64,000 bases of DNA, taken from an uncultured Microthrixaceae bacterium (GTDB lineage: Bacteria > Actinomycetota > Acidimicrobiia > Acidimicrobiales > Microtrichaceae). Shown here piece by piece: positions 660 to 43,428 of this stretch (position 1 is its first letter; each line of letters starts with the position of its first letter). Made by a program: the position numbers and the translations under genes. The stretch spans positions 3,162,259 to 3,226,258 of the forward strand of contig CAWDVV010000001.1 of assembly GCA_963805905.1 (NCBI GenBank), written 5' to 3'. The notes below the pieces were generated by a model. It searched no databases. It was not told the origin of the DNA and saw only the letters and a list, made by a program, of their open reading frames with translations.

Positions 660-708
660 GTTCTGCGGTGCGTGCGTGGCGCATAGCGCCACGCACGCAC
701 CACAGAAC
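660..708. repeat. 49-bp palindromic element, copy 1 (one arm mismatch)
   Basis: GTTCTGCGGTGCGTGCGTGGCGC-ATA-GCGCCACGCACGCACCACAGAAC. It ends 2 nt from the HtrA stop codon (711-713). Confidence 0.9.
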
Positions 709-710
709 GA

Positions 711-2270
711 TCATTTCGTACCGAGTGTGGCGGTGATCGACTGTTGCTGGCCTTCACGTTCGATGAGGAGCTTGACCTTTTCTCCAGGGTCCAGCGTGCC
801 GATCACCCCTACGAGATCGTCGTTGCTGCGGACGGTCTTGCCATCGATCTCAACGATCACATCACCGGGCTGCAGTCCGGCCACGTCAGCGCCGGAACCC
901 GACTTGACGCTCTGCACGAACGCTCCCGAAGTGGCGTCGATGGAGAAGCGCTGCACGACGTCGTTGTCCAGTTGGGAAACAGGCAGGGTCGACACTCCGA
1001 GCTCCGGACGCTGCTTCTCGACGTGCTTGCCTTCCTTCAGGTCGTTGATGAGATCCTTGATCGAGTCGATCTCGAGAGCGAACCCGATGTTCTGCGCATC
1101 GGCGAGGATCGCCGTGTTCATGCCGACGACCTGACCCTGGGCGTTGATCAACGGACCGCCGGAGTTGCCGGGGTTGATCGCCGCGTCGGTCTGGATCAGC
1201 TCATCGAGGGTGGAGCCATCGGGAGCGGTTATCGATCGACCGGTCTGCGAGACGATGCCCAGGGTGACGCTCGGATCGGCTCCCAGATTGAGGGCGTTTC
1301 CGATGGCGACCACTTCGTCACCCACCAACAGGTCGTCCGAGGAACCGAGTTCGGCGGGTACCGTCTTGCCTTCGAGGCCCTCGGCCTTGACGAGCGCCAC
1401 ATCAGATTCGGGAGCGGACCCGATGACGCGACCCTGCACGGCCTGACCGTCTGCAAAGTCCACCTCGATGCTCTGAGCGCCTTCGATCACGTGTGCGTTC
1501 GTGAGCACCAGGCCGTCCTCGCTCAACACGATGCCCGACCCTGCCGCTTCACCCTGCCGGGTGCCGGTGTGGATCGAAACCACCGACGGCTGCACCTTCT
1601 CGAGCAGCGCACGGATATCGAGCGGCTTCCCGCTCACCTCATTGGAAGGCCGCGAAGCATTGGTCGAGGCCGGCGTCGCCACCACGGTCGAAGGCTCGTC
1701 GCGGATCGTCATCGCGGCGGCGGTGATACCACCGGCAACGATCGCACCGACCAGGCCGCCCACGATCGCTGCACGAACGCCACCACCGCGGCGATGGTCG
1801 CGGCCGGATCCATCCGACGGAGAGGAGGACCCTCCCGTCCCGGGAGGCCCGAGTGGTGGTTGGCCTCCCACCGGTGCACCGACCGCGGTCTGCACCCCGG
1901 CCTGGGTAGCGCCCGCGCCCACGGCGCCTACCGGTGGGCCGGAGGGCATCCATGGACCCTGTTGGCCTGAACCCTGCTGTGCGGGCACCGATCCGGCCGG
2001 GGCGCCGGAAGGACCACCGGGAGCCTGCCACGGACCCGGCTGTGGAGACATGGCCCAATTCGGGACACCACTGCCATCGTTCGCCGGTGCGCTCTGGGGG
2101 TTGGCTGTCGGCGGACGGACCGGCTCAGCGGATGGAGGGGCCGCAGGTATCCGCACCGGGCCCGAGGGCGGCGATGACGGGGGCGCTGGTGGACCCTGTG
2201 ACCCACCGGCAGCGTTGCTGCCCTCGGAAAGACCTCCGCCACCCGATTGGGGATGAGGTGTGTTGGACAT
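711..2270 (-). CDS. HtrA/DegP-family trypsin-like serine protease with C-terminal PDZ domain
   Basis: Catalytic-triad contexts TNAHV, DVALVK and GNSGGPL. PDZ-like tail (GLQPGDVIVEIDGKTV). Pro/Gly-rich N-terminal region followed by a TM helix. Start taken at ATG 2270, preceded by GGAGA; the ORF is open to 2345. Confidence 0.85.
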   Translation of the reverse strand: MSNTPHPQSGGGGLSEGSNAAGGSQGPPAPPSSPPSGPVRIPAAPPSAEPVRPPTANPQSAPANDGSGVPNWAMSPQPGPWQAPGGPSGAPAGSVPAQQGSGQQGPWMPSGPPVGAVGAGATQAGVQTAVGAPVGGQPPLGPPGTGGSSSPSDGSGRDHRRGGGVRAAIVGGLVGAIVAGGITAAAMTIRDEPSTVVATPASTNASRPSNEVSGKPLDIRALLEKVQPSVVSIHTGTRQGEAAGSGIVLSEDGLVLTNAHVIEGAQSIEVDFADGQAVQGRVIGSAPESDVALVKAEGLEGKTVPAELGSSDDLLVGDEVVAIGNALNLGADPSVTLGIVSQTGRSITAPDGSTLDELIQTDAAINPGNSGGPLINAQGQVVGMNTAILADAQNIGFALEIDSIKDLINDLKEGKHVEKQRPELGVSTLPVSQLDNDVVQRFSIDATSGAFVQSVKSGSGADVAGLQPGDVIVEIDGKTVRSNDDLVGVIGTLDPGEKVKLLIEREGQQQSITATLGTK

Positions 2271-2495
2271 GGGTTCGTCTCCGTGCATTCGTCGAGTATG
2301 TATCCGCGACCCGCAAGTCCGGTGGTCACCCCGTAAGGTTCCCACAGAGCGCTCTTAGAATCTCTTTGCTCGCCGGGGCCTTGTACCTATTGACTCACCA
2401 CGAGCGGGCACCTTGCCTGATGTCAGTCTCAGTTCCTGTGACTTTCACCGGACTCCGTGGAACAAATCAGGGCCACCAGGCGTCATATTGAACCT

Positions 2496-2789
2496 ATGGA
2501 GAATTCCGCAGATACCAAATGGATGGCGAAGGGAAATTGCGCCAACAAGCCACCTTCGTTGTTCTTCCCGTCCGATGGCGTCGGTGTGGAGAGGGCCAAG
2601 ACGGTGTGCGAGGACTGTCCAGTGCTCAACCAGTGCCTGGAGTACGCGATCCAGAATCGGATCGATCACGGCGTCTGGGGCGGTACCTCGGAGCGTCAAC
2701 GTCGCCGCATCATCAGGGCTAGGGCAGCAGCTGCCTCCTCGAACGCAGTATCGGTCACAGCCGAGGAATCGGTCCTGGCATCCAATTGA
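2496..2789 (+). CDS. WhiB-family transcriptional regulator
   Basis: Four-Cys cluster pattern C-x(n)-C-x2-C-x5-C (CANKPPSLFFP...VCEDCPVLNQC) followed by GVWGGTSERQRRRI. The start at 2496 is one of two in-frame ATGs. Confidence 0.85.
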   Translation: MENSADTKWMAKGNCANKPPSLFFPSDGVGVERAKTVCEDCPVLNQCLEYAIQNRIDHGVWGGTSERQRRRIIRARAAAASSNAVSVTAEESVLASN

Positions 2790-2795
2790 ACCGAC

Positions 2796-2833
2796 GAACC
2801 TGACTCGGAGTCCAGAACCTGACTCGGAGTCCA
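2796..2833. repeat. exact 19-bp tandem duplication (GAACCTGACTCGGAGTCCA x2)
   Basis: Read directly. Each unit holds the short palindrome GACTC-G-GAGTC. It lies just downstream of the whiB-like stop. Confidence 0.9.
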
Positions 2834-2977
2834 ACGGAGGCCACATGATCTGGTGGCCCTGGGTGCGTCGAGATGACGATCACTCGACACGTGTCCTCCG
2901 GTCGGCGTGGCCAGATCGATGAGAGCCAGATCGATCAGACCTGCGTGCATCCGGCGCTGCTGCATCACCCCTATGAG

Positions 2978-2999: not shown

Positions 3000-3073
3000 C
3001 GTGCGAACAGACGTCCTGCCGATCGGAGTTCACACGCGAGAACTACGCGGGTGAATCCCTCGAATTCTGTTGC

Positions 3074-3265
3074 CTATGCCTTGTCGGTCTTGTCGGACTC
3101 GATCTCGGCAGGCTCGTCGTCGCTTTCGCCCTTGCCTTCGGAGAGGCCCCGCTTGAACTCACTCTGAGCTTGTCCCAGGTTCTTTGCGAGTTTCGGGATC
3201 TGTGATCCACCAAAGAGCACCAAAGCCACGATGACGACGATGAGCCATTCATTGCCACTGAACAT
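3074..3265 (-). CDS. tatA: twin-arginine translocase subunit TatA/E
   Basis: MFSGNEWLIVVIVALVLFGGSQIPKLAKNLGQAQSEFKRGL... has a TatA-type N-terminal TM helix, an amphipathic helix and an acidic tail. Start is ATG 3265 inside the longer ORF 3074..3478. Confidence 0.85.
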   Translation of the reverse strand: MFSGNEWLIVVIVALVLFGGSQIPKLAKNLGQAQSEFKRGLSEGKGESDDEPAEIESDKTDKA

Positions 3266-3328
3266 GTCTGCAGCGTACCCGAGGTGGGTACCTGTTCGAC
3301 GCGCGCGCCATTGGTTAGCGTCCTCGGC

Positions 3329-4109
3329 GTGGACAACTCCGGCCGGCTCAGCCCGAGCGAGGCGCGTGACCGTGGTCGCGCGGCCCGTCGGGCGATCGGC
3401 CGACAAGCACGGTCTGTTGCGTCGGATGCGATCAGCGCGCCACCTCCTGGAGCTCCCGGCTGTGTCCGGTGCCCGCACCGTGGCGGGCTACTGGCCCATC
3501 AAGGCGGAGGTGGACCTGATCGCCGTGTGGCACGAACTGCATGCGGGAGGAACAGCGGTGTGCCTACCAAGGCTCCAACCGGGAACCTCCGCGTCGATGG
3601 AGTTCGTACCCTGGGAGCCGACGGTACCGATGGCTGAGAACCGCTTCGCCATTCCCGAGCCACCGGGCCCGGCATCCCCGATGGAAGCCCTCGACGTGGT
3701 GGTGATGCCATGCACTGCGGTTGACGATTCGGGGACCCGCGTGGGCATGGGAGCAGGATTCTACGACCGAGCCCTTGGCTCGTTCACCGAAACCACGCCG
3801 CCCGGGGGAGCCGCCGGCCTCGCGCCTCACAGCGATTCCAGCACAACGAGCGATCCCACAGAGCTGATTGCGTCGGGGTCCCTGCGACCCACGCTGGTGT
3901 GTGTCGCCTTCGAATCACAGCTGGTGCATTCGCCGGGGTCGATTGAGCGTCGGTCCTGGGACGTGCCCGCAGACATCGTCGTGACCGAGTCACGCGTCCT
4001 CACCACGGACGCGATCGAACCCCGCGTGCGTGAACCCACCACAGCTGAATACCGCGTCAACGACGAAGCGGAACCCGAGCCAGACGGGAATCGACAGCGA
4101 AAGAGCTGA
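3329..4109 (+). CDS. 5-formyltetrahydrofolate cyclo-ligase (apparent frameshift near 3437-3445)
   Basis: The C-terminal part (ORF 3231..4109) has YWPIKAEVDL, NRFAIPEP and GMGAGFYDR motifs. The family-typical N-terminus (SEARDRGRAARRAIGRQARSVASDAISA) is in the frame of ORF 3284..3637, starting at GTG 3329. The two frames join at DAISA|HLLELPAVSGARTVAGYWP. Confidence 0.7.
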
Positions 4110-4727: not shown

Positions 4728-6731
4728 TCAGCGCCGGCCCTCGAGCAGCTTGCGTCGTTGGTCCAGGAAGTCCACCAATACGTAGTCGCCCAGGGTTTCC
4801 GGAGACGTGAAGAACGCCCTCCCCCGATTCAGGGATGTGAGGTTCTCCACGAAGCGCGACAACCCGGGGTCCGGGTCCAGCATGAACGTGTTGATCCTTA
4901 TGTCATCCTTGGTGCATCTCGACACCTCGAGCAACGTTGCATCAACGGTCTCGCGCACCGGTGGGTAGTGGAACTCGGGCTCACCCCAACGGTTGATGTG
5001 TGCGGTCGGTTCGCCATCGGTGATCATGATGATCTGCTTGGTTCCCGACTCACGGGCGAGCATCCGGCGCGCCAGTTGGAACCCGTGCTGCATGTTGGTG
5101 CCGTAGACGAAGTCCCAGCTCACCTCGGGCAACTGTTCCGCGGTGAGCACCCGACCGACCTCGGAGAACCCCACCAGGCCCAGGAAGTCCCGCGGATACT
5201 GCATCGAGATGAGGCTGTGCAACGCCATGGCCACCTTCTTGGCAGGCAGGAAGTTGTCACGCATCGGCATCGACAACGAAAGGTCGAGCATCAGCACCGT
5301 CGAGACGCGCACAGTTCGTTCTGTCTGTTCGATCTCGAAGTCCTCCGGCGAGAGATTCACGGGAGTTCCCTCGCCACGCATGACCGCGTTGCGGATCGTG
5401 CGATTGATGTCGAGGTTGAACGGATCACCGTACTCATAGGGCTTGGTGACATACGCCCGCTCGTGACCGACTCCGAGGTCGTCGCGCCGATGGCCGCCCA
5501 GGCGGTCGGCATCGATGTTGCCGAAGAGTTCCGCGAGCGCGTTCCGACCGAGGCGGCGCAAACCCGCCGGCGTGAGCTCGAGACGACCTTCCTTCTGTTC
5601 GACCAGGCCGGCTTCGGTGAGCATCTTGGTGATCTCGGCCATCCGCTCGAGACTGTCTGCGGGTTCATCGCCAACGAGCTCGCGGACCCGATCGAGATCT
5701 ATCTCGTTCAACGCACCTGGTTGGGGGGATCCGCGCAGCATCGCTTCGAGCTGGTCCAGATCGCCCAGATCACCCATCGCCTCCATCGCACCCGCCATGT
5801 CGAGCGGATCGGCCCCCTCGAAGGAGTAGGAGTTGTCCCACCCGGCATCGGGGAAGGTGTCACGCAGGTTGTTGCTCAACTGCTCCACCTGCCAACGGAG
5901 GTCCATGTCCTCGAGAAGCTGGTCGCTCAGGGCCTGCAGCTGGGCGCGCTGTTCGGGCGTCATCGAGTTGAGCATCGCCTGCGCAGCCGCCATGCGCTGC
6001 GCCATGATCTCCAACAGTTCATCGAGGGTCTGGGGATTCTCCGGGAAGAAGTCCCCGTAGGCGTCCATGAAGGCGTCGAAATCGGGGTCCTCGCCGGCGG
6101 CACGCTGTTCCAGCATGGCGTTGAGTGCCGCCATCATGTCCTTCATCCGGGACATGTCCTCGGACGACAGGTTCTCGACCGCTCCCGAGAGCTGGTCGAC
6201 GTACTGGTTCATCAGCTGCTCACGTAGCTTCTCGGTGAGTTCGGCGAAGCGCTGCTCGGCCTCGGGCGACAGGAAGTCGTGGGCCTCGAGGTCCTTCACC
6301 TTGCCCGCCAGGTCGTCACGGAGCATGTCGAGTTCCAGGTGGCGAGCATCCGCCGCCTGCTGGGCCAGTTCACCACGGCGCTCATCGCCCGAAGCCAGGT
6401 CGTCGCGGCGCTGCTGGTCTATGGCATCACGCTCTGACTGGACCACCTCCTTGAGTTCCTCGGCGATCTCGTCGTAGACACCTCCGAGATCGAAGCGTTC
6501 GAGTGTGTCCTCGCGTTTCGCCCGCAGTTGTTCGAGGATCTCACGCATCCCCTGGATGCGTTCGCCGTTGCGGTCCTCGAAGCCCTGTTGCATCATCCGG
6601 CGCAGCGCCGCGTTCACGTCGCCGTGGTACATCAGGTCGTCGGTCAGCTCCGAGAGCACATCGAGGGCGTCAAGTTCGAAGCCCTTCTGCGTGCCGTCCC
6701 AAGGGGAGTAGCGGAACCGCGGCCGTGTCAT
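4728..6731 (-). CDS. von Willebrand factor type A (VWA) domain protein with long acidic coiled-coil N-terminal region
   Basis: C-terminal MIDAS-like context VLMLDLSLSM ... IIMITDGEPTAH. It sits immediately downstream of the AAA+ ATPase on the same strand. Confidence 0.8.
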   Translation of the reverse strand: MTRPRFRYSPWDGTQKGFELDALDVLSELTDDLMYHGDVNAALRRMMQQGFEDRNGERIQGMREILEQLRAKREDTLERFDLGGVYDEIAEELKEVVQSERDAIDQQRRDDLASGDERRGELAQQAADARHLELDMLRDDLAGKVKDLEAHDFLSPEAEQRFAELTEKLREQLMNQYVDQLSGAVENLSSEDMSRMKDMMAALNAMLEQRAAGEDPDFDAFMDAYGDFFPENPQTLDELLEIMAQRMAAAQAMLNSMTPEQRAQLQALSDQLLEDMDLRWQVEQLSNNLRDTFPDAGWDNSYSFEGADPLDMAGAMEAMGDLGDLDQLEAMLRGSPQPGALNEIDLDRVRELVGDEPADSLERMAEITKMLTEAGLVEQKEGRLELTPAGLRRLGRNALAELFGNIDADRLGGHRRDDLGVGHERAYVTKPYEYGDPFNLDINRTIRNAVMRGEGTPVNLSPEDFEIEQTERTVRVSTVLMLDLSLSMPMRDNFLPAKKVAMALHSLISMQYPRDFLGLVGFSEVGRVLTAEQLPEVSWDFVYGTNMQHGFQLARRMLARESGTKQIIMITDGEPTAHINRWGEPEFHYPPVRETVDATLLEVSRCTKDDIRINTFMLDPDPGLSRFVENLTSLNRGRAFFTSPETLGDYVLVDFLDQRRKLLEGRR

Positions 6732-6811: not shown

Positions 6812-8212
6812 TCAGCGGGAGCGGTACTGGGCCCGGCCGCCCACGGCATCCTTGTTGAGACGCTTGGAGAGGTGCAGCCCTTCGAGCACGAGTTCGACCG
6901 CGGAAGCGACCTCGCCGGGAGTCGGTTCGGGCCCGACGAGTTCCGCCACGGGTGCGCGGAGTGAGGGGAGTGACTCGATCAGGCCCATGTAGTCGGCGGA
7001 AGCGATGTCCTCGCCGGTCTCCACCGGATCCGACCCAGTGAGTTCGTCCACCACGGCCGTGAGCTGCTGGGGACTCACCCGATCGCGGAACACCTCGAGG
7101 ATCGCCGAACGGATCAGGTGATCGAGGATCTGACCGTCACGACCCTCTTCGAGGGACTCGATCTCCACCTTGCCGGCGGTGGAAGCCGGTAGTGCCTCCA
7201 GGTCGCAGATGCGTGGCACGACTTCGTCGTCGCCGGCCAGCAACGAACGACGCGCAGCGTTCGCGACCATCACTTCGTAGTTGCTCACCGACAGGCGAAC
7301 CGACACGCCGGAGCGCTGCGAGATGTGGGCGCTCTCGCGTGCCAGCTGGGACAACATCGCCACGACCTCGGTCATGTGATCCGGCACACGGACCGTGACA
7401 CCCTCGGCCTCGAACGGCTGGGCCTCCTGGTGGACGATGGCGACCTCGGTCTCGACGTCGAGGGGATAGTGGGTTCGCACCTGGGAACCGAATCGATCCT
7501 TGAGCGGAGTGATCAACCGACCGCGGTTGGTGTAGTCCTCGGGGTTCGCCGACGCGACCAGCATCACGTCGAGGGGGAGGCGCACCTTGTACCCGCGGAT
7601 CTGCACATCGCGCTCCTCGAGCACGTTCAGCAGACCGACCTGGATGCGCTCGGCCAGGTCCGGCAACTCGTTGATGGCGAAGATCCCACGGTTGGTCCGC
7701 GGAACCAGTCCGTAGTGGAGCGTCAGTTCGTCGGAGAGGTAGCGGCCCTCGGCCACCTTGATCGGGTCGACCTCACCGATGAGGTCCGCTATCGAGGTGT
7801 CGGGTGTGGCCAGCTTCTCCCCGAACCGTTGGGAGCGGTGCACCCAGTGGATCGCAGTGTCGTTACCCAACTCCTCGACCAGATCACGGGCGTAGGCGGA
7901 CACGGGGGCATATGGATCGTCGTTGATCTCCGAGCCCTCGACGATCGGCATCCATTCATCGAGCAGATCCACGAGAGCCCGGATCATGCGGGTCTTGGCC
8001 TGGCCCCGCTCTCCCAGGAAGATCACATCGTGGCCCGCCAACAGGGCGTTCTCGAGCTGGGGAAAGACCGTGTCCTCGTACCCGAGTACCTCGGGGAAGA
8101 GTCGCTCCCCGGCACGGATCCGGTTGGCAGCATTGCGACGGATCTCGGTCTTGACCGGAACCGAGTTCCAACCGGATGCTCGCAGGTCCCCAAGTGTGGC
8201 TGGTTTCGACAT
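6812..8212 (-). CDS. AAA+ ATPase, Mg-chelatase ChlI/BchI-like
   Basis: Walker A-like GERGQAKT and Walker B-like GIFAINELPDL. Overall ChlI-like layout with a C-terminal extension. Confidence 0.8.
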   Translation of the reverse strand: MSKPATLGDLRASGWNSVPVKTEIRRNAANRIRAGERLFPEVLGYEDTVFPQLENALLAGHDVIFLGERGQAKTRMIRALVDLLDEWMPIVEGSEINDDPYAPVSAYARDLVEELGNDTAIHWVHRSQRFGEKLATPDTSIADLIGEVDPIKVAEGRYLSDELTLHYGLVPRTNRGIFAINELPDLAERIQVGLLNVLEERDVQIRGYKVRLPLDVMLVASANPEDYTNRGRLITPLKDRFGSQVRTHYPLDVETEVAIVHQEAQPFEAEGVTVRVPDHMTEVVAMLSQLARESAHISQRSGVSVRLSVSNYEVMVANAARRSLLAGDDEVVPRICDLEALPASTAGKVEIESLEEGRDGQILDHLIRSAILEVFRDRVSPQQLTAVVDELTGSDPVETGEDIASADYMGLIESLPSLRAPVAELVGPEPTPGEVASAVELVLEGLHLSKRLNKDAVGGRAQYRSR

Positions 8213-17653: not shown

Positions 17654-18447
17654 TCAGGCGGGGACCCGACCGCACGCGCTGCGGGCCACCGCTTCGAGCG
17701 CGAATTCCCCGGTGGGTGAACCCAGGCGGGCGAACAGCTCTGCCCGCAGAGCCCCACGCTTCTGCTCGGTAGCGATACGCAGAACGACGCTGCCGGGCCG
17801 ATCCCTGTCATGAACCCCGCCCACAGTTCCTCGAAGGAGCGGTACCCGGAGCGCACCCGCAGCGTCGTCTCACTGACGTCGACCAGGCCTGCGGCGACCA
17901 GCAGACCTGCGACCTCGCCCTTGCGACCGAATCGCAGGATGTGGGCGTCCGCGGGTGCCGATGGGTCCACCACCAGGGCCGCGGCCCAGAAGTGTCGGAG
18001 CATCTCCATTCCCTCTTCGGAATCCCATACACACGTCCCGACCACCCCTCCCGGTCGCACCACCCGCCGGAGTTCGCCCGCAGCGAGAGCGGGATCCGAA
18101 ACGAAGTGCAGGACCAACTGCGCGAGCGCCGCGTCAAAGGTCTCGTCGCCGAAGGGGATCGCCTCGGCCCGTCCTTCGCGGACGTCCACTCCGACACACC
18201 GGGAAGCGCACTCGGTCACGAACGGCGGGGACGGGTCACACGCCGAGACCGACCCGGTACCGAGTCGGTCGACCAGCACGTTCGTGAGAGCACCCGGCCC
18301 GCAGCCGACATCGAGCGCGGAGTGGCCGGTGTGCAACCCGACAGAGTCGACGAACAGCTCCGCGAGCGGTTCGGAATAGCGGCCCATGAACGAGAAATAC
18401 GCCTCACCCGAAGTCTGGAATGTCTCGGCATAGTCGCTTGAGTCCAT
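17654..18447 (-). pseudogene. class I SAM-dependent methyltransferase, one apparent frameshift near 17770-17780
   Basis: MDSSDYAETF...ALDVGCGPGALT...PGGVV in the frame of ORF 17413..18867. The family-like C-terminus EQKRGALRAELFARLGSPTGEFALEAVARSACGRVPA* is in another frame and ends at TGA 17654-17656. GGAGG RBS before ATG 18447. Confidence 0.75.
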
Positions 18448-27170: not shown

Positions 27171-27236
27171 TCAACGCGGCCCCGCGCCGCTCGTTCCCTC
27201 CCCCGCGTCCGCTCGATCCCCCTCGCCGCGCCGCTC

Positions 27237-27285
27237 GTTCTGTGGGGCGTGCGTGGCGCTCAGCGCCACGCACGCCCCACAGAAC
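27237..27285. repeat. 49-bp palindromic element, copy 2 (perfect)
   Basis: GTTCTGTGGGGCGTGCGTGGCGC-TCA-GCGCCACGCACGCCCCACAGAAC, between convergent genes. Confidence 0.95.
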
Positions 27286-27326
27286 ATCCCTTGTTCAGTT
27301 CTGTGCCCGGACACGGACCGACAGGA

Positions 27327-28262
27327 TCACGCTTCAGGCGGCTGGTTCCACTCGATCCAACCGCCTCCGGTGCGGCCATCGGCATTGTCGTAACGTGCCA
27401 AGGCGCGTGGGAACCGATCGAGTCGACCGTCGCTCGGATGGACCAGACCCACCGGGGAGAAGGCCAGCGGCGTGACGGTCAGATCCAGACCGCTGTACGC
27501 AATCGTGGAGCGTTCCGGCAGGCGGTCGTCGCCCTCGATAGTGCTCTGGACCACTGAATCCGACTCCAGGAACTCGGCGCTGTCGGGGTCCAATCGGTAG
27601 CTCACACCCCAGTCGCTACTGGGATCAACACCACCAGTGCTGTGAAAGCGCGTGCCATCGTTGAGACGTCCGGCGGACCACAACCAGGTGTTGGCCCACC
27701 AGTCCCGCGCCGCGCCCCATGAATGGTCACGTTGACCCCACCCGTCGACGTTGATCCGTTCGTCACCCACCATGACCACACCGTGAACCCTGCACGGGAT
27801 TTCATAGCGAGGAGTGATCGCCGGCCACATGTAGCCGGCGCGATCGGTGTCCCAGTCGAGTTCGAAGCCGAATGGCACACGGTCACCCCTGGGACCACCT
27901 TCCCGATACATCTCGGCAGGGTCCTCGATTGCCAGACCGAACGCTTCGAGGTTGGCGGTCATGTGGTCGAGCGGGACCTCGACCGTGTGATCCGCCCACA
28001 GGCCGTCATGGCGAACCTCGAGTGATTGCTCACCCCGGGGCATGCGCACATCGTTGTCCACCACCGTCACCAGGGGCCGGCCCTCGCCGACGAGACACGC
28101 CCAGTACCAGACCCGATCCAGGTTGGGATAGAAGCCGATCCGGATGTATCCGCCCAACGACAGGTCCTCGGTGAACCAGTCGAGGTAGTACGACTCGTTC
28201 CAGAGTTCTACATCGGGGTCGACGCTGTGGCGGGATTCATCGGCAGGGTCAATCGCTGGCAT
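27327..28262 (-). CDS. hypothetical protein (311 aa), bracketed by palindrome copies 2 and 3
   Basis: Start is ATG 28262 (MPAIDPADESRH...). Trp/Asp-rich soluble protein (WNESYYLDWF, GWGQRDHSWGAARDWWANTWLW). Family not confidently recognised. Confidence 0.65.
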   Translation of the reverse strand: MPAIDPADESRHSVDPDVELWNESYYLDWFTEDLSLGGYIRIGFYPNLDRVWYWACLVGEGRPLVTVVDNDVRMPRGEQSLEVRHDGLWADHTVEVPLDHMTANLEAFGLAIEDPAEMYREGGPRGDRVPFGFELDWDTDRAGYMWPAITPRYEIPCRVHGVVMVGDERINVDGWGQRDHSWGAARDWWANTWLWSAGRLNDGTRFHSTGGVDPSSDWGVSYRLDPDSAEFLESDSVVQSTIEGDDRLPERSTIAYSGLDLTVTPLAFSPVGLVHPSDGRLDRFPRALARYDNADGRTGGGWIEWNQPPEA

Positions 28263-28299
28263 CCAGGCAGTATGGCCCACAACCGGATCCAGGGTCCTC

Positions 28300-28348
28300 G
28301 TTCTGTGTGGTGTGCGTGGCGCTGAGCGCCACGCACACCACACAGAAC
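28300..28348. repeat. 49-bp palindromic element, copy 3 (perfect; identical to copy 4)
   Basis: GTTCTGTGTGGTGTGCGTGGCGC-TGA-GCGCCACGCACACCACACAGAAC, between divergent gene starts 28262 and 28376. Confidence 0.95.
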
Positions 28349-30106: not shown

Positions 30107-30159
30107 GTACAGGCCCGACCCGGAACCCGGGGGCGTTCGGCGCTGCCGATCTGTGGGGT

Positions 30160-35214: not shown

Positions 35215-35377
35215 CCTCTCAGGTGGTGGAAGATTCCAACCTACGCCCTAAGGGCCTCGGGCGGAGCCTCAGAAAACGAGATCGAGTCGACTCTCACCGG
35301 AGTGTCCGGTGTGAGTCGACTCGATCGGGATCAGCACCGTGAACCGCAGCCCGGAGGCCGCCGTCACGTCAGTTCTC

Positions 35378-36814: not shown

Positions 36815-37030
36815 TTTTCCCCCTTGTTGAGGTGTTGCTTTCTGAACTATTGCTTTTTGAGATCTTGACCGTCGAGGCTTTGGATGTCGAGGTCCTGGTT
36901 GTCGAGGTTTCCAGCGTCTGCCGGGACCCCGGACGGCGGGCAGTGGTGACGCGATCGTAGCTACGATCCGGCGTCCGTGCTCATCGGTCTGCTCATCGGT
37001 CTGCTCACCGGCTGTGCTCACTGACTGTTC

Positions 37031-38176
37031 TCACTGGCTCTGCCGGCTCGGGGCTCGGGGCTCGGGCCGGGGCTCGGGGCTCGGGGCTCGGGGCTCGGGG
37101 CTCGGGGCTCGTGGGCTCGTGGCTCGGGGCTCGTGGCTCGTGGTGTGACCCGACCCTCCCTGTCCCTCCCTGTTCTGTGTGGTGTGCGTGGCGCTGAGCG
37201 CCACGCACACCACACAGAACACCGTTACGCGCTGGCGCTGACGAGCGCGCCTGATTCCTTCACGCACGGTCGACACGACGCGGGCTGGGTCTGTCCAGAC
37301 CATCTCGTCGGTCACCTCCACCACTACGAACCCGTCCGAGGTGAGCCGACTGATCCGCTGAGCGTCTTCCGTGCGATCAGTCAACGAGGAGTGATGCAAC
37401 TCGCTCTGGACCTCGATCACCAACGGCGCACCGACCACGAGGAAGTCAACCCGTCCGCTCCAGTGGCCCTCGCCGCCGAGACTGACCTGTCGATTAACCC
37501 TGATCCCGGCGTCGCTGAGGATCCGCTGCGTTCGGGACTCGAGTCCGCTGTCGGGGGGTCTGTAGTCGGTCCCACGCTCCTTCAGGAATCTGCGAAGTCC
37601 CGCCGTCCCGTTGCGACCTCGCTCTCCCATGTCACCCAGGAGGCAGCCGATCGACTCACCCGACAGAAGGCGCTGTGACCACAGGGACTCGACGATCCGC
37701 TCAGCTCGTCCGTGGCTATGGACCGCGAACAACTGGAGCGCCACGAGTTCGGGCCGCACGACCGGGACGCCTGAGATGTCAGTCACCCACTGACCTTCTA
37801 TACAACGCACCCGGTGCACTCGTGCCAGAGGGCTCCGACGTTTCGTGCTACGAACGGTCACCACCTGAATCGGGTTCTCGAGGCGCGACCCACGATGTCC
37901 CCACCACGCAGCCGCGGACTCGTGCGACAGGTATGCAGCGGGACCGGCGTCGAGGACCGCCGCGCACACACGCTGGGCTGCGGACTCAGGCGAGCCGAGT
38001 CGTCGGAGCACCCGGGAGCTGATGAGATCCCACCCATGGTGTCGGCGCAGGCGCGCCACTTCCCAACGCTCCCAGCCGGTGCTCAGGAGTTGGTATCCGG
38101 CGACCAGGCCGTGCTGGCGAGCCGCCAATCGGTGGAGGTCGTCGGTGTTGGTTGGGTACGACGAGCCGTGGGTCAT
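37031..38176 (-). CDS. DUF559 (Vsr-like endonuclease fold) protein with N-terminal AbiEi-like HTH; C-terminal ~65 codons are read through palindrome copy 4 and the heptamer array
   Basis: Start is ATG 38176 (MTHGSSYPTNTDDLHRLAARQHGLVAGYQLL). DUF559-like core VDFLVVGAPLVIEVQSELHHSS...DAQRISRLTSDGFVVVEVTDEMV. There is no stop before the palindrome, so the ORF ends at 37031. The native C-terminus is probably near 37225. Confidence 0.65.
   Translation of the reverse strand: MTHGSSYPTNTDDLHRLAARQHGLVAGYQLLSTGWERWEVARLRRHHGWDLISSRVLRRLGSPESAAQRVCAAVLDAGPAAYLSHESAAAWWGHRGSRLENPIQVVTVRSTKRRSPLARVHRVRCIEGQWVTDISGVPVVRPELVALQLFAVHSHGRAERIVESLWSQRLLSGESIGCLLGDMGERGRNGTAGLRRFLKERGTDYRPPDSGLESRTQRILSDAGIRVNRQVSLGGEGHWSGRVDFLVVGAPLVIEVQSELHHSSLTDRTEDAQRISRLTSDGFVVVEVTDEMVWTDPARVVSTVREGIRRARQRQRVTVFCVVCVALSATHTTQNREGQGGSGHTTSHEPRATSPRAPSPEPRAPSPEPRPEPRAPSRQSQ
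37045..37143. repeat. heptanucleotide microsatellite (GGCTCGG)n, about 14 units, G-quadruplex-competent on the + strand
   Basis: GGGGCTCGGGGCTCGGG...GGGGCTCGGGGCTCGGGGCTCGGGGCTCGGGGCTCGTGGG..., read directly. Confidence 0.9.
37172..37220. repeat. 49-bp palindromic element, copy 4 (perfect; identical to copy 3)
   Basis: GTTCTGTGTGGTGTGCGTGGCGC-TGA-GCGCCACGCACACCACACAGAAC. Confidence 0.95.
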
Positions 38177-38255
38177 GATGGAACCCTGCTGCCCGGTGAC
38201 GTCGGGCGAAACGGGTCGCGTGGCCCGGTTCGACCTCCCTCGCCCACACCACCTC

Positions 38256-38304
38256 GTTCTGTGTGGCGTGCGTGGCGCTGAGCGCCACGCACGCCACACA
38301 GAAC
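38256..38304. repeat. 49-bp palindromic element, copy 5 (perfect; flanks extend pairing by 4 bp, CCTC/GAGG)
   Basis: GTTCTGTGTGGCGTGCGTGGCGC-TGA-GCGCCACGCACGCCACACAGAAC, between divergent starts 38176 and 38385. Confidence 0.95.
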
Positions 38305-38384
38305 GAGGGAAAGGGGCGCCGTGACAGGGGCGGGGCGAGGCATGGGTCTACGGCGGGAGTGGGCGGTACCTGTAGCGTTGGTCC

Positions 38385-39801
38385 ATGCGCCGCCTGGCCC
38401 GACTGTTGAGCTACGGGGGCAGTGCCGCAGCGGTGCTGATCCTCAGCGTCATCCACGCGCGTCTACATCGCTGAAATTCCCTACGACTTCATCAACTCCA
38501 GCCGTTTCACCTGGGCGATCGGCTACAGCATCCTGCTGGAGCTCACGTCCTACTCCGTCGGCATGCCCGACCAGCCACGCACGATGCGCCAGGCGTTCTA
38601 TCTCTCTTCGATAGCCGTGGGCGTTGCTGTTGTGGGTGTCTCGATCCCACAACTTGCGATCGGCGATGCGCTCCTTCCACGCTTCGTGGTCTTCGGCTCG
38701 GCGCTGGTGATAATCCCCTGGCAGGTGATGCTCAACGCCATGTCGCGGGGCCGCACCAGGCGGGCCCAGAACCGTGATCGTGTGCTGGTGATAGCCCATG
38801 CAGGCGAGGAACAACAGTTCCGCAACGACCTCGCTCTCAGCCCTGAGAAGGCGGCCCAGTTGGTCGCGTTCCTGACCCCGGAAGAAGTCGCGGGGGCCGG
38901 CGAATACCCGCTGGCCGAGGCCGTGGAGCGATCCGGAGCGACCCTGGTCGTCATGGACACCCATGCCCAGGCCAATGACCGCGTGATCACCCAGGCCGGC
39001 GCAGCTCCACGAGTCGGGGGTCCGACTGCGAACGCTTCAGGACTTCTACGAGGAATGGCTCGGCAAGTTGCCCGTCAGCGAACTGGAGCGCGGCATCGCT
39101 GTTCTTCGACATCGGAGAGGTGCACAGGGTCTACTACGGGCGCCTCAAACGCATGATGGACATGAGCATCGCGTATCCTCGCGATCATTCCGCTCGTCAT
39201 CGTCACGCCGTTCGTGTTGATCGGAAATGTGGTCGGCAACCGGGGTCCGCTCATGTACCGCCAACCCAGGGTCGGAAAGGGGGGCTCCGAGTTCATGATC
39301 TTCAAGTTCCGCACCATGACCGACCACTCCGGCGGGAAGAAGGCCCGACTGAATGCGTCATCAGAAGCGGCGGCCAGCGATACCGGAACACCTGGTGGAG
39401 CAGACGGGAACAGCGCACCGACCACGACGTGGACCCAACAGGACGATCCACGGGTCACCCCCTTCGGGAAGCTGCTGCGACACAGCCACCTCGACGAACT
39501 CCCCCAGGTGATCAACATCCTCAAGGGGGACCTCTCGATGGTGGGACCACGGCCCGAACAGCCCCACTACGTGATGGAACTTTCCGCCAAGTTGCCGTTC
39601 TATGACCTGCGGCACCTGGTGCGCCCCGGACTGACCGGCTGGGCACAGGTGAAGTACGGATACGCGGGCGACGAACGCGACGCCCTCGAGAAGCTCCAGT
39701 ACGAGTTCTTCTACCTCCGACACCAGAGCCTCAGCTTCGACAACCGCATCATCCTCCGCACGGTGCGGGCGATGATCGGCGGCCAGGGCAGCGGTCGCTG
39801 A
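38385..39801 (+). pseudogene. polyprenyl-phosphate glycosyl-1-phosphate transferase (WbaP/EpsB-like sugar transferase), about four frameshifts
   Basis: The C-terminal catalytic domain is intact in ORF 39214..39801 (PLMYRQPRVGKGGSEFMIFKFRTM...LDELPQVINILKGDLSMVGPRPE...GLTGWAQV). The N-terminal TM and linker parts are spread over three frames (MRRLARLLSYGGSAAAVLILSVI / VYIAEIPYDF...IIPWQVMLNAM / AQLHESGVRLRTLQDFYEEWLGKLPVSELER / SLFFDIGEVHRVYYGRLKRMMD). Junctions are near 38455, 38995, 39095 and 39172. Confidence 0.75.
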
Positions 39802-39911
39802 GGAGTGCCGCGCCCCCCTCGCTCGTGGCCTTCACCATTGCCGGTCACATTTGTCCGGCGCCCGGTCCCGCCTACACTTCTGGCCATGATCGGCGACCGG
39901 GAACGCACACA

Positions 39912-40991
39912 ATGACCGCCGCAGGGCCCCCGAACGCGACCTCATCGCCGGCCGACTCGAAGTCGATCAACCCGTCGACCGGGGAAGCCCCGGCCAGCGA
40001 CTCGGCAATCGCCCCACTGGTGTCCGTGGTCGTGCCGATGCGAGACGAGATCGACTGGATCGAGACCTGCATCGAGAGCTTCAGGCACCAGGACCACCCG
40101 CTCGATCGCCTCGAGGTGATCATCGCCGACGGACGCTCCACCGACGGTTCGCGGGAGCTCGTGGAACGCCTCGCCTCGGAGTACGACTGGCTCCGGCTGG
40201 TCGACAACCCGGATCGGTTGGCGTCCTCGGCGTTCAACAGGGGGATCGAGGCGGCCAAAGGCGACGTGGTCTGCATCGTGGGCGCACACGCAGAGGTCGG
40301 CCCCGACTTCGTCAGCCGATCGGTCGCTGCGCTCGAAGAGACCGGCGCCGGCGGTGTCGGCGGGCAGCTCCGCCACGACGGCGTCGACCGCACACAGCAG
40401 GCCATCGGGCTTGCCATGACCTCACGCTTCGGAATGGCCTCGCCGTTCCGCTACTCGACCCAACGTTGCGAGGTGGACACGATCGGTCATCCTGCGTACC
40501 GCCGCGACGTGCTCGACGAGGTCGGGGCATTCGACGAATCGCTGCTCCGCAACTCCGACTACGAACTCAACCACCGGATACGGGCGGCCGGCCACACACT
40601 GGTGCTGGACCCTTCGATCGTCACCCTGTACCGACCCCGGGCAACCCTGCGCGGGCTCGCCCGGCAGTTCTACGACTACGGCTTGGGCAAAGCCGACGTG
40701 GCCCGCAGCCACCCGGACTCTCTGAAGGTCCGCCACGCGGTCGCTCCCGTAGCAACCATCATCGCCGCAGCAGCTCCCGTGCTCAGCGTCTCGCGCAGGG
40801 GTCGACGCCTCCTCGGTCTCGCGGCTCTGGGATATGGGGCGGTTCTCGCAACCGCCGTGGTCACCAGTCGCCCGGACCAACACGATGCCGACCCGGTTAC
40901 GTTCCTCGCCGCCTTCCCGGTCATGCACATCACCTGGGGCACCGGCTTCCTGGTCGGCCTCGCCAGGCCCGGGCTGGCGACCCGACGCTGA
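39912..40991 (+). CDS. family 2 glycosyltransferase with C-terminal TM helices
   Basis: VSVVVPMRDE...IIADGRSTDGS...VCIVGAHAEV is a GT-A/GT2 pattern. Start taken at ATG 39912; the ORF is open from 39825. Confidence 0.8.
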   Translation: MTAAGPPNATSSPADSKSINPSTGEAPASDSAIAPLVSVVVPMRDEIDWIETCIESFRHQDHPLDRLEVIIADGRSTDGSRELVERLASEYDWLRLVDNPDRLASSAFNRGIEAAKGDVVCIVGAHAEVGPDFVSRSVAALEETGAGGVGGQLRHDGVDRTQQAIGLAMTSRFGMASPFRYSTQRCEVDTIGHPAYRRDVLDEVGAFDESLLRNSDYELNHRIRAAGHTLVLDPSIVTLYRPRATLRGLARQFYDYGLGKADVARSHPDSLKVRHAVAPVATIIAAAAPVLSVSRRGRRLLGLAALGYGAVLATAVVTSRPDQHDADPVTFLAAFPVMHITWGTGFLVGLARPGLATRR

Positions 40992-41054
40992 ACCCAGCGA
41001 TTCACTTCCTGCCGGCTCCCGGTAGAAACCTCCGACCCACGGGCACCGTGCCCC

Positions 41055-41112
41055 ATGAGCACGGGCATCCACAGCTCCGCTCGATGAGCACGGGCATCCA
41101 CAGCTCCGCTCA
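41055..41112. repeat. 29-bp tandem duplication (ATGAGCACGGGCATCCACAGCTCCGCTC[G/A] x2)
   Basis: Read directly. Intergenic, downstream of the GT2 gene. Confidence 0.9.
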
Positions 41113-41270
41113 ATGCCTGGTGGCCATCGGATTTCCCACGCATCGGGGGGGGCTGGAGACTCATGCGTGGCGTCGAATGTGCCGATGAGAGATGAATGGA
41201 CCGTCGACGCCGCAACGCCCACGTGCCGTTGCTGCCGCGTGTAAGCGCACCCTCGTCGCGTGACGCCTCA

Positions 41271-41432
41271 CCGCCTGACACCTCTGGCGCCTCGTCGCCC
41301 GAAACCTCACCGCCCGACACCACACCGCCTGACACCTCTGACACCTCGCCGCCCGAGACCTCGCCGCACGACACCACACCGCCTGACACCTCTGGCGCCT
41401 CGCCGCCCGAGACCTCGCCGCACGACACCATT
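41271..41432. repeat. three 54-bp tandem repeats (encode PPDTSGASSPETSPPDTT-like 18-mers in the + frame)
   Basis: Units at 41271-41324, 41325-41378 and 41379-41432, aligned by eye. In frame with ORF 41196..43370. Confidence 0.85.
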
Positions 41433-41552
41433 GGCGCCTCGGATCTCGCAGGGCAACGATTCAACCGACGTGCAACGGACGGGACTCCGGACAGCAGCGT
41501 TGAGAACCCGCCACGCGGGGCAGGAGACGCAGGAGCCACCGATACGACCGGG

Positions 41553-43370
41553 ATGCGGATGCCGCGGGGCAATCGCCGACTGTGGATCAACGCGGCGGCG
41601 CTGGCCCTGGCGCTCATCGCTGTCGTGGCAGTCATGCGACCCCGCGCGGTCGTCGTGCCCGACGAGGGCCTTTACCTCGCTCAGGCCGATGCGCTCACCG
41701 ATAGCTCCTGGTCGGTCGAACGTGAGGCCCCCGAGGTCGATGCCGACGGGGAGTTCTCGCGCCTGTTGCCCGAAGTCATCGCCGGTGACCGTGAGATTCC
41801 GTATGCACGCCACGCCGGCTACCCACTGGTGATCACACCGGGTTACTGGCTCGGTGGCTACCTCGGCGCAATCGCTCTCTCGGTGCTGGGTCTGTGGGGC
41901 GCCGCGGTCAGCGGAGCGTTCATCGCCAGGCGGATCGACAAGCGTCTCGGCGTTCCAACACTGTGGCTCATCGGACTCGGCAGCCCGCTCCTGTTCTACG
42001 GCTTCGTCACGATGGGCCATGCTCTCGCCGCGGCGACTGCGGGCGCGGCGTTCCTGGGCCTCAGCAAATGGTTGGACGACCGGAGTTGGCCGGGTCTGGC
42101 ATTCGGGCTGCCGGCGCTGTTGCTGACCGTGGGCCTGCGCAGCGAGGGAACGATCTACGCGCTCGCAGTGGTCGCTGCCATCGGGCTCATGTCCCTGCCG
42201 GCGAGGAGGACCCGACGACTCGATCTGCGTGCGTTCCTCACCGCGGGCGCGCTCGGAGCCGCGGTGTTGGCCACCTACTTCCTCGACACACGCGTGGCCC
42301 TGGCCATCTCGGGTCGCGACGGCTACGGAGTGAACCCGGGACGGATCGCCACCAGGGCGAGCGCGGACCCGGTCTCGGGATCATGGGCGAGCCTGTTGCG
42401 ACCGTTCGCCAACTCCTGGAGCACCGCCGCGTTGTGGGTCACGCTCGCAGCGGTTCTGGTGATCGGGGCATCGGTGGTCCTACGGGTCGCTCCGAAGCGC
42501 TCACGCATCTCCCTCGTGCTGATGGTGGCAGCGGTCGGCGCGGCTGTGGCGATGTTGGTCGATCCACCATGGTTGGTAACGGGCATGATCGCCGCGTTCC
42601 CGCTGCTGGCGGCAGGTCTGATCTGGTTGAGGCGCTCAGACCTGGTGCCTACCTCGACGGACCAGCCACCCGAGCGAGCAACGTCATCCGACCTGGCGAC
42701 CCCTGCGGCCGACCAGGAGTCAACGACGGGAGCCTCGCCGGTTGGGTCACCAACGCTCGTGTTGCGGATCATCCTCGTGTCGGTGATAGCGACCACCGGC
42801 CTCATCGCCACGCTGTACGCCAACGGCGGCGCCGCCGAGTGGGGCGGACGGTTCTTCCAGATCCTCCTTCCGATCCTCGTGCCTGTCGTGGTGCTCGGGC
42901 TGTACCGCGCGGCGAGCGAGTTCCCGATCCCTCAACGCCGGATCGCGATTGCGTGTGGGGTGTTGGTGACCGCGGCCCTCTCGATCAGCGCACTGCGCGC
43001 CCAGGCCGATATCCGAGCCGATGCGACAGATACCGTCGATGGGACCCTCGCGTACGTCGCACGGGAGTTCCCGGGCGAGACGACGCTGGTGGTGGTCGCC
43101 AACAAGAACGCGGGCGGCAACTCGCGGCAGTTCTGGGCCGCGGACTCATCGGCAGATGTGCTCACCGCCATGAACCTCGACCGGTTGGATCTGGCGCTCG
43201 AGGCGGCTGCGGGGGCCGGTCGAAACCGCGCGGTGGTCGTCACCGATGCGGACCCCGACGAGTTCGACGACTCGATAACCGGTGACCTCGACGGGATCGG
43301 CTGGACGGTACTCGACTCGTCGGCCACCCCGAGGGGTGAATCGAACCTGTACGTGGTCGGTGAAGGCTGA
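41553..43370 (+). CDS. GT-C fold membrane glycosyltransferase (ArnT/PMT-like), polytopic
   Basis: The first extracytoplasmic loop carries VVPDEGLYLAQA (a DExxY-type motif of GT-C enzymes). More than 10 predicted TM helices. C-terminal soluble domain. The ORF is open from 41196, so the repeat-rich 119-aa extension may or may not be translated. Confidence 0.6.
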   Translation: MRMPRGNRRLWINAAALALALIAVVAVMRPRAVVVPDEGLYLAQADALTDSSWSVEREAPEVDADGEFSRLLPEVIAGDREIPYARHAGYPLVITPGYWLGGYLGAIALSVLGLWGAAVSGAFIARRIDKRLGVPTLWLIGLGSPLLFYGFVTMGHALAAATAGAAFLGLSKWLDDRSWPGLAFGLPALLLTVGLRSEGTIYALAVVAAIGLMSLPARRTRRLDLRAFLTAGALGAAVLATYFLDTRVALAISGRDGYGVNPGRIATRASADPVSGSWASLLRPFANSWSTAALWVTLAAVLVIGASVVLRVAPKRSRISLVLMVAAVGAAVAMLVDPPWLVTGMIAAFPLLAAGLIWLRRSDLVPTSTDQPPERATSSDLATPAADQESTTGASPVGSPTLVLRIILVSVIATTGLIATLYANGGAAEWGGRFFQILLPILVPVVVLGLYRAASEFPIPQRRIAIACGVLVTAALSISALRAQADIRADATDTVDGTLAYVAREFPGETTLVVVANKNAGGNSRQFWAADSSADVLTAMNLDRLDLALEAAAGAGRNRAVVVTDADPDEFDDSITGDLDGIGWTVLDSSATPRGESNLYVVGEG

Positions 43371-43379
43371 TCAACGGTG

Positions 43380-43428
43380 GTTCTGTGGGGCGTGCGTGGC
43401 GCGCAGCGCCACGCACGCCCCACAGAAC
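43380..43428. repeat. 49-bp palindromic element, copy 6 (perfect)
   Basis: GTTCTGTGGGGCGTGCGTGGCGC-GCA-GCGCCACGCACGCCCCACAGAAC, between convergent genes. It is followed at 43432-43463 by an exact 16-bp tandem duplication (CAAAATCGGGGAGGAC x2). Confidence 0.95.

Follow-up and report, generated by a model that had tools for sequence, protein, structure and literature searches.

The window analyzed here, a 64,000-nt stretch of contig CAWDVV010000001.1 from an uncultured Microthrixaceae bacterium, contains six 49-bp palindromes, two of which (copies 4 and 5) bracket a gene for a predicted nuclease fused to a DNA-binding module of the AbiEi type. Homologs of this gene are bracketed in the same manner in related genomes, and further copies of the palindrome are dispersed over the genome of a syntenic relative, the Microthrixaceae metagenome-assembled genome (MAG) FR_25. 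We propose, with a probability of roughly 0.55, that the palindromes serve this AbiEi–nuclease as cognate sites in double-stranded DNA, and the two would make up a system like that of the repetitive extragenic palindromes (REPs) and the REP-associated tyrosine transposases (RAYTs), with a different enzyme.

Palindromes at the nuclease gene in related genomes

Contigs carrying homologs of the nuclease were compared with the window; the protein identities are from BLASTP for L037–L043 and from phmmer for L044 and L045 (Table 1). Palindromes of ~49–50 nt were found at the gene in eleven genomes, on both sides in nine (the window, FR_25 at locus L029, L037, L038, L039, L040, L041, L042, and L044) and on one side in two. 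The bracketed homologs show protein identities of 35 to 77%, and the unit of palindrome, gene, and palindrome measures 1071–1152 bp. The upstream palindrome is present in 10 of the 11 genomes, with its near end ~40–110 nt before the start codon, and the downstream palindrome abuts or overlaps the stop codon.

The elements of the relatives are 49–50 nt long, or slightly longer with extended pairing, and mostly have the ends GTTCTG(TG)...(CA)CAGAAC. The inner 11–17 nt of each arm are wholly different between genomes and, in L037, also between copies. A layout of two 23-nt arms around a 3-nt center (23-3-23) is shared by the window, FR_25, and L037; the more distant relatives have arms of 22–24 nt and centers of 0–6 nt. 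The conserved unit is the geometry together with the GTTCTG/CAGAAC ends, not the inner sequence. A preliminary description of the window had stated that the hairpin is what is conserved; the geometry and the mirrored arms are indeed kept, but the conserved ends had been missed.

Covariation was analyzed with 14 distinct 49-nt elements from five genomes. Paired bases occupied 92% of the cells, and 17 of the 23 pairs had double-sided changes, a result reached by none of 500 shuffles; slid controls paired at 26–50%. G–U pairs were found in only 2 of 322 cells, and there were no one-sided changes from G–C to G–U. Because the covariation is Watson–Crick only, with almost no G–U, it points to an arm symmetry that is kept at the DNA level rather than as a selected RNA stem.

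The AbiEi–nuclease between copies 4 and 5

On the basis of profile, AlphaFold, and Protein Data Bank (PDB) matches, the protein, with a conserved length of 318 amino acids, is predicted to be a fusion of a complete AbiEi-type module and a nuclease of the Vsr type. PADLOC models of AbiEi matched residues 9–171 (E values of 2e-14 and 1.4e-13), and Pfam gave DUF559 at 27.3 bits (cutoff 20.6) as well as MTES_1575. A Pfam search with eight proteins of the family detected weak AbiEi_4 in five and AbiEi_1 in two, in addition to DUF559. A profile of 65 sequences matched the DUF559 structure 3HRL and the nuclease domain of I-Bth0305I (3R3P). The AlphaFold2 model had a predicted local distance difference test (pLDDT) score of 92, and its top match in Foldseek was AbiEi of Streptococcus agalactiae (PDB ID: 6Y8Q, 204 columns), followed by I-Bth0305I (3R3P, TM score of 0.78), Rv2827c (1ZEL), Vsr (1VSR), and 3HRL. 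D244, E255, Q257, S258, H262, D271, and R274 are invariant in the 65 orthologs. The Vsr-like PD-(D/E)XK fold with its conserved acidic and His residues thus predicts a nuclease. NCBIfam has no name for the protein.

The mechanically derived open reading frame (ORF) that spans copy 4 encodes 422 amino acids, with DUF559 and MTES_1575 matches. The database version of the protein (P0001) has 381 amino acids, is 100% identical, and is ~65 amino acids longer than its orthologs; other homologs mostly have 299–345. Judged from these ortholog lengths, the 381-residue frame is a read-through across copy 4 and the adjoining (GGCTCGG)n array, the heptamers of which translate as SPEPRAP-like repeats. The L038 ortholog has a similar G-rich C-terminal extension.

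The window neighbors of the gene are an aldehyde dehydrogenase gene and an ORF without a Pfam match, and those in the relatives are Aldedh, luciferase-like, or Iso_dh genes. No gene for a DUF1814 protein (AbiEii toxin) was found among the neighbors in the window or the relatives. The preliminary description had noted the lack of a transposase, RAYT, or integrase gene. This holds for the 30 window proteins scanned, none of which matched Y1_Tnp (PF01797), and no insertion sequence (IS) or transposase was found in the window or near the copies, but the nuclease gene with its DNA-binding module had been overlooked. The protein family comprises 6,289 clusters (50% identity) at an E value of 1e-3 or better and 1,755 at 1e-10, mostly of full length. 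Since the family is large and members of 35–38% identity in other neighborhoods are bracketed likewise, the arrangement may be widespread. A literature search of incomplete coverage, which is not proof of novelty, gave no paper in which AbiEi/DUF559 proteins were connected with dispersed palindromes.

The palindrome family in the window and in FR_25

A degenerate 49-mer search of the window returned exactly six matches, located as described before (Table 1), where none are expected from dinucleotide-preserving shuffles; in an independent inverted-repeat scan, they were the longest palindromes of the window. The scan also reproduced the 23-3-23 layout and the complementarity of the arms (100% in five copies and 96% in copy 1, which has one arm mismatch). 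Recomputation bore out two further points of the preliminary description, the identity of copies 3 and 4 (49/49 nt) and the mirroring of every variable arm position in the opposite arm. The centers of copies 1–6 are ATA, TCA, TGA, TGA, TGA, and GCA. Aligned 60-nt flanks share no likeness beyond a sharp boundary at GTTCTG and CAGAAC. The window (~64% G+C) carries ordinary chromosomal genes; it contains no Rfam family at gathering thresholds and no tRNA, and a pattern search revealed no solo arms. An imperfect 45-nt inverted repeat at 63599–63643, with arms 82% complementary, has GAACTG...CAGTTC ends. These are the alternative end type of L038 and L043, and one such chance match occurs in 4 of 100 shuffles.

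An exact 25-nt core was then used to scan one genome per species (185,579 species) and metagenome and viral contigs. The species representatives gave 35 loci, and 34 of them came from FR_25, a genome distinct from that of the window with ~75–80% nucleotide identity of the genes (about 77%). It holds 38 copies on 15 contigs, so the family is a dispersed one rather than the product of local duplication. The remaining locus (L008) and the single metagenome match (L036) lack GTTCTG ends and were rejected as chance cores, and no core match was present in viral contigs. A plasmid collection contained no protein homolog and no meaningful DNA match. With no true copy in any other of the species genomes or in the metagenome or viral contigs, the element is extragenic, dispersed, multicopy, and lineage-restricted. 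Copies at orthologous places have been kept even with gene identities of only ~77%: copy 3 corresponds to FR_25 L015 1297–1345, copy 4 to L029 2130–2178 and the downstream palindromes in L037–L044, and the right flank of copy 6 to that of the single FR_25 copy at L029 3233.

Copy statistics were calculated for 44 copies (6 of the window and 38 of FR_25). All have an intact or decayed GTTCTG at the start and CAGAAC at the end, and 33 are perfectly symmetric (23 perfect pairs). The mirrored subfamilies are GTGGT (12 copies), GGGGT (10), GTCGC (6), and GGGGC (4). Only the center triplet varies freely, and its orientations are balanced (TCA 12 and TGA 12, ACA 8 and TGT 7), in agreement with the earlier statement that both orientations occur. 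The copies are singletons rather than REPINs (REP doublets forming hairpins), and nhmmer detected no decayed copies in 336 kb. In 20 of 35 copies, the actual element is the 49-mer preceded by C and followed by G. Insertion into a palindromic target was considered and rejected, as flank complementarity is at background beyond positions −2/+2.

A second hairpin family of ~53 nt (GCGAACTGTCCGGTGT...ACACCGGACAGTTCGC), absent from the window, was observed in FR_25 at L002 2669–2721 and at L026 4946–5003, 6038–6095, and 6107–6167. The three hairpins in L026 bracket a frameshifted paralog of the AbiEi–nuclease (~5000–5953).

Rearrangements at the palindromes

At the place of module 1 (Table 1), FR_25 lacks the gene and has exactly one palindrome left, with the outer flanks aligning. 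As L037 and L038 keep the DUF7064 gene, it was lost from FR_25. The 5-kb module 2 is likewise replaced in FR_25 by a single palindrome with aligning flanks, which indicates insertion or loss of the module. Its trio of ORF, Bac_transf, and GT2 genes lies on the opposite side of the nuclease gene in L040, flanked by the palindromes at 3645 and 6108, with amino acid identities of 51, 75, and 67% to the window proteins. In L039, the downstream neighbor is changed directly after the palindrome, and the palindrome–gene–palindrome unit is inverted in L041–L043 relative to the luciferase-like and Aldedh neighbors. The list also includes the chimeric copy L010, which combines a GGGGT left arm with a GTCGC right arm. 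Deletions, insertions, and inversions could all take place at sites that lack polarity.

The comparison of relatives for presence or absence, called for in the preliminary description, showed that palindrome occupancy differs at orthologous spacers. The convergent Fpg/Ldh spacer contains a family copy in FR_25 and L037 (the third 49-nt copy of the latter, at 17940–17988) and none in the window. The intergenic sequence is too diverged for an empty-site alignment, and only the 12-nt GATCTGTGGGGT at window 30148–30159, which matches the opening 12 nt of an arm at 11 positions, resembles an arm end; it may be a remnant.

The least conserved part of the locus lies beyond copy 5 (window 38305–52574 compared with L037 3484–9880) and begins exactly at the palindrome. 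It encodes pilin-like N_methyl/PKD proteins, a 936-residue protein, and an FG-GAP protein. The gene for the 724-residue protein of module 2 (41196–43370, no Pfam match) has a 39/54-nt tandem array at 41251–41441 in its 5′ part, which encodes a proline- and aspartate-rich repeat.

Tandem arrays beside the palindromes

Arrays detected by Tandem Repeats Finder (period of at least 5) lie within 100 bp of 25 of the 44 copies, compared with 51 of 175 control spacers (Fisher P of 7e-4). Arrays abutting within 8 nt were found at 21 of the 44 copies (48%) and at 6.6% of mock sites (P of 8e-14). The abutting arrays consist of 6–25-nt units in 2–14 copies, and each locus has a different unit. Besides the window (Table 1), they occur at L005, L011, L022, L024, L026–L028, and L035, and likewise beside the palindromes in L038 and L042–L045. 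The repeat units include terminal bases of the palindrome in L011, in L037, and at window 27180–27240, and the stop codon of the neighboring gene in L011, L026, and L027, which indicates that the palindrome predates the duplications. They may stem from stalling of replication at the hairpin or from repeated rounds of nicking and repair.

The left flanks are C-rich and the right flanks G-rich, without T runs. The right flanks often contain telomere-like GGGGTT or GGGTGGG runs (for example, at L022 3691–3724 with GGGGTT x5.7, L027 4743–4857, and L029 3282–3332), a potential source of G-quadruplexes on the strand that leads away from the palindrome.

Gene context

Context classes were assigned with a self-trained codon-usage gene caller and are approximate. 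The spacers occupied are convergent for 14 copies, tandem for 16, and divergent for 8; five other copies are "inside" weak or extended ORFs, and the left neighbor of one is unknown owing to the locus end. The convergent share is 14/38 for the copies and 48/303 for all spacers. In the window, the contexts given in the preliminary description (copies 2 and 6 between convergent genes, copies 3 and 5 between divergent starts) match these independent gene calls. Strictly speaking, copy 4 does lie within an ORF, but to say so misleads, the ORF being the read-through described above. A sigma-70 promoter scan detected nothing near copy 5.

The spacer between the Aldedh and ABC-transporter genes contains a palindrome of 45–49 nt in three genomes (window 35280–35326, L015 7919–7967, and L037 12612–12656), whose sequence is wholly different in each genome and lacks GTTCTG ends; in L038 and L041, the spacer has an element of the family type. 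The long hairpins at this place appear to turn over in sequence with the structure kept.

Table 1. Positions of the palindromes and associated features in the window and in related genomes
Sequence	Feature	Position	Strand	Remarks
Window	Copy 1	660..708		Center ATA, single mismatch between the arms; 2 nt beyond the stop codon of the HtrA-like gene 711-1949(-)
Window	Copy 2	27237..27285		GGGGC subfamily, center TCA; convergent spacer; left boundary of the DUF7064 module
Window	Copy 3	28300..28348		GTGGT subfamily, center TGA; divergent spacer; right boundary of the DUF7064 module
Window	Copy 4	37172..37220		Directly adjoins the conserved part of the AbiEi–nuclease gene at its 3′ end
Window	Copy 5	38256..38304		79 nt upstream of the AbiEi–nuclease start codon; divergent spacer; candidate autoregulatory operator
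Window	Copy 6	43380..43428		Center GCA; convergent spacer; far boundary of the 5-kb module
Window	Predicted AbiEi–nuclease gene	37221..38176	-	AbiEi-type module (winged helix-turn-helix N-terminal domain and AbiEi C-terminal domain) joined to a nuclease of the Vsr / DUF559 / I-Bth0305I type
Window	Read-through tail of the 381-residue ORF	37031..37220	-	Translates copy 4 (FCVVCVALSATHTTQN) and the heptamer array; absent from the orthologs of 299-345 residues
Window	Module 1, DUF7064/DUF7065 gene	27286..28299	-	Bounded by copies 2 and 3
Window	Module 2 (ORF, Bac_transf, GT2, 724-residue protein)	38305..43379	+	Bounded by copies 5 and 6
Window	Tandem duplication at copy 2	27180..27240		22-nt unit x2.8, includes the first bases (GTTC) of copy 2
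Window	Array stack abutting copy 4	36978..37173		12-13-nt unit x5, GGCTCGG x13.9, CCCTCCCTGT x2
Window	Tandem duplication 3 nt after copy 6	43432..43464		CAAAATCGGGGAGGAC x2.1
FR_25 L029	Palindromes at the homolog	2130-2178 and 3233-3281		
L037	Palindromes at the homolog	upstream 9881-9929; downstream 10928-10976		66% identity
L038	Palindromes at the homolog	upstream 9833-9889; downstream 11072-11130		58% identity
L039	Palindromes at the homolog	upstream 9912-9961; downstream 10967-11024		61% identity
L040	Palindromes at the homolog	upstream 2623-2671; downstream 3645-3693		64% identity
L041	Palindromes at the homolog	upstream 5883-5932; downstream 6958-7007		53% identity
L042	Palindromes at the homolog	upstream 5869-5918; downstream 6936-6985		51% identity
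L043	Palindrome at the homolog	upstream none found; downstream 6904-6959		50% identity
L044	Palindromes at the homolog	upstream 2894-2943; downstream 3949-3998		38% identity; different neighborhood
L045	Palindrome at the homolog	upstream 1423-1472		35% identity; different neighborhood; contig ends at the stop codon

Proposed mechanism and alternatives

Here, we propose a mechanism for the AbiEi–nuclease and its palindromes. Two protomers would bind the two 23-bp arms by reading the invariant outer GTTCTG(TG) motif, and this binding would set the nuclease domains over the center of the site. The copy upstream of the gene would function as the operator. The remaining copies would also be bound, and probably nicked or cut, by the protein; repair would then maintain them, spread them into intergenic spacers, and occasionally join different sites. 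We infer in this way the binding, the cleavage and its position, the autoregulation through the upstream copy, and the part of the nuclease in spread and rearrangement. A wider proposal, which we put forward tentatively and with less than even confidence, is a host-resident repeat system in which a single-copy gene for an AbiEi winged-helix/Vsr-type nuclease maintains and spreads 23-3-23 perfect palindromes as nonpolar break-and-rejoin points. The AbiEi–nuclease would have the role in such a system that RAYTs have for REPs, and modules between the sites could be deleted, moved, or inverted. The system would be REP-like and probably operator-derived, paired with a different enzyme.

Several points weigh against the pairing of the palindromes with the AbiEi–nuclease. 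Binding by a dimer alone leaves the perfect complementarity of the nonconserved inner positions unexplained, and a cruciform or hairpin state, or templating from arm to arm, seems necessary in addition. The enrichment in convergent spacers and the closeness to stop codons are what a role as host terminators predicts, and the bracketing could be due simply to an operator and a terminator that share a motif. The nuclease motif reads E-x-Q, compared with E-x-D in canonical DUF559 (3HRL), which makes the predicted activity uncertain; active I-Bth0305I has N at the position aligned to this glutamine. Because unrelated long palindromes sit in the Aldedh/ABC-transporter spacer of three genomes, long hairpins may be a general feature of the clade. 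The compared genomes are also too divergent for a clean pair of filled and empty sites.

The palindromes might instead be RNA elements of the host, such as bidirectional terminators without a U-tract, 3′-end stabilizers, or RNase III sites, and those at the nuclease gene would then be terminators of the neighboring genes. Such a role agrees with the stability of the RNA hairpins on either strand (free energy of −53 to −70 kcal/mol), with the location in convergent spacers and tens of nucleotides after stop codons, with the mismatch of copy 1, which is a G–U pair in the HtrA-sense RNA, and with the unrelated palindromes of the Aldedh/ABC-transporter spacer. It is nevertheless unlikely. No T-tract follows any copy, a terminator scan of 36900–38600 gave no terminator-like sites, and divergent starts flank about 8 of 38 copies; a role as terminators alone is at odds with these results, as the preliminary description had already argued. 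The strictly Watson–Crick covariation without one-sided changes disagrees with selection on an RNA stem, which also leaves the invariant 6–8-nt ends, the fixed 49-nt length, and the match to the AbiEi operator unexplained. The center orientation showed no obvious relation to the direction of transcription when inspected by eye, without a formal test. A pure regulon, in which an AbiEi-like transcription factor with an inactive nuclease domain uses the palindromes as operators of neighboring genes and no mobility is tied to the protein, would account for the operator geometry, the consistent distance of the upstream copy from the start codon, and the replacement of E-x-D by E-x-Q. We consider it rather more doubtful still, since most copies are at 3′ ends or in convergent spacers and not at promoters, seven residues of the nuclease domain are invariant in the 65 orthologs, a regulator does not need perfect self-complementarity at nonconserved inner positions, and rearrangement junctions and the chimeric copy map to the sites.

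The label "REP/MITE-like" (MITE, miniature inverted-repeat transposable element) of the preliminary description holds in that the repeat family is dispersed and of the hairpin type, but the features that define canonical REPs and MITEs are lacking. As to origin, a classical REP/REPIN family mobilized by a RAYT (a Y1 HUH transposase) elsewhere in the genome is very improbable. Dispersal of many extragenic copies with a lineage-specific sequence is typical of such families, and a RAYT, being single-copy, could lie outside the 64-kb window. The palindromes, however, lack a GTAG or CGTC tag and are singletons, no Y1_Tnp match was obtained among the window proteins scanned, and a different gene is consistently bracketed. 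Their stems are perfect, whereas mismatches near the loop of REPs are needed for RAYT cleavage and strengthening of the stem abolishes it (PMC3733652). Least credible is a minimal MITE, in which the two terminal inverted repeats of a DDE-type IS would directly adjoin each other and be moved in trans. Two 23-bp inverted repeats separated by only 3 nt would suit this origin, but none of the 35 intact copies has a direct target-site duplication and the flanks tend to C...G, which is inverted. No parent IS or transposase is present in the window or near the copies, the plasmid and viral collections gave no significant match, and in L037 the inner stems are wholly different between copies with the ends and length kept.

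To our knowledge, REP-like repeats have so far been explained through one enzyme family, the RAYTs. If the palindromes are sites of the AbiEi–nuclease, they would represent a second, unrelated pairing of an enzyme with a palindrome, and the REP-like lifestyle would have evolved convergently. Thousands of uncharacterized "DUF559 / AbiEi-domain" proteins would gain a concrete hypothesis, one that joins a DNA-binding module of the antitoxin type, a nuclease of the homing-endonuclease type, and genome-wide repeats. As break-and-rejoin points, the sites would offer a simple route to cassette-like change in Acidimicrobiia, a poorly studied class that includes the wastewater Microthrix relatives. A natural DNA binder or cutter with a specificity of 49 bp may also serve as a laboratory tool.

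Comparison with known systems

U-tract-less ("I-shaped") intrinsic terminators occur in high-GC Actinobacteria. The palindromes resemble them in the GC-rich stems, the lack of a T-tract, and the location after stop codons and in convergent spacers. These terminators differ in sequence from locus to locus, lack a fixed length and conserved ends, and accept G–U pairs, whereas the palindrome family is the opposite in each respect. In integrons, hairpin-forming attC sites bound cassettes; here too, hairpin-forming sites bound genes or small blocks that are gained, lost, or reordered between relatives. Unlike in integrons, there is no tyrosine integrase among the window proteins scanned, no attI, and no array in one orientation, and the copies are spread over 15 contigs. 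The palindromes pair perfectly and have none of the extrahelical bases by which the polarity of attC is set. In the R″/R′ layout of attC, GTT/AAC is at the inner ends; in the palindromes, it is at the outer ends.

The REP/REPIN–RAYT systems (REPtrons) share with the present family short extragenic palindromes in tens of dispersed copies, a lineage-specific sequence, a conserved terminal tag, and copies at rearrangement junctions. In both, one presumed enzyme gene is bracketed by the repeats and vertically inherited, with a single full-length copy in the sequence examined. The enzymes differ, an AbiEi winged helix with a Vsr-like PD-(D/E)XK nuclease here and a Y1 HUH transposase in REPtrons. 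Canonical REPs are imperfect stem-loops of 20–40 nt with GTAG or CGTC at one end (PMC3733652); the palindromes are singletons with the GTTCTG tag at both ends and perfect stems of a fixed 23 bp.

The AbiEi operator consists of two 23-bp inverted repeats 3 bp apart, each bound by one monomer (PMC7319586). The palindromes have the same 23-3-23 layout as the operators of S. agalactiae (PabiE) and of the Mycobacterium tuberculosis Rv2827c promoter, likewise upstream of the gene for a protein with an AbiEi fold, and the protein is homologous to AbiEi by sequence (PADLOC) and by fold (6Y8Q). In contrast to the AbiE type IV toxin–antitoxin system, the AbiEi module has no AbiEii (DUF1814 nucleotidyltransferase) partner and is fused to a nuclease. 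The site also differs from the AbiEi operator: a second one is located at the stop codon, it has been multiplied genome-wide, and its arms are fully self-complementary.

I-Bth0305I, an "EDxHD" homing endonuclease, provides the closest solved nuclease domain, which is Vsr-like as in the present protein. As a homodimer, it leaves a footprint of ~60 bp and cleaves a pseudopalindrome in the middle (PMC3239194). A homodimer with separate DNA-binding domains is also what we propose for the AbiEi–nuclease. The gene for I-Bth0305I lies in an intron of a phage recA, and the enzyme has a single target, whereas the AbiEi–nuclease is encoded by a free-standing chromosomal gene, has an AbiEi N-terminal part, and would be paired with dozens of intergenic sites.

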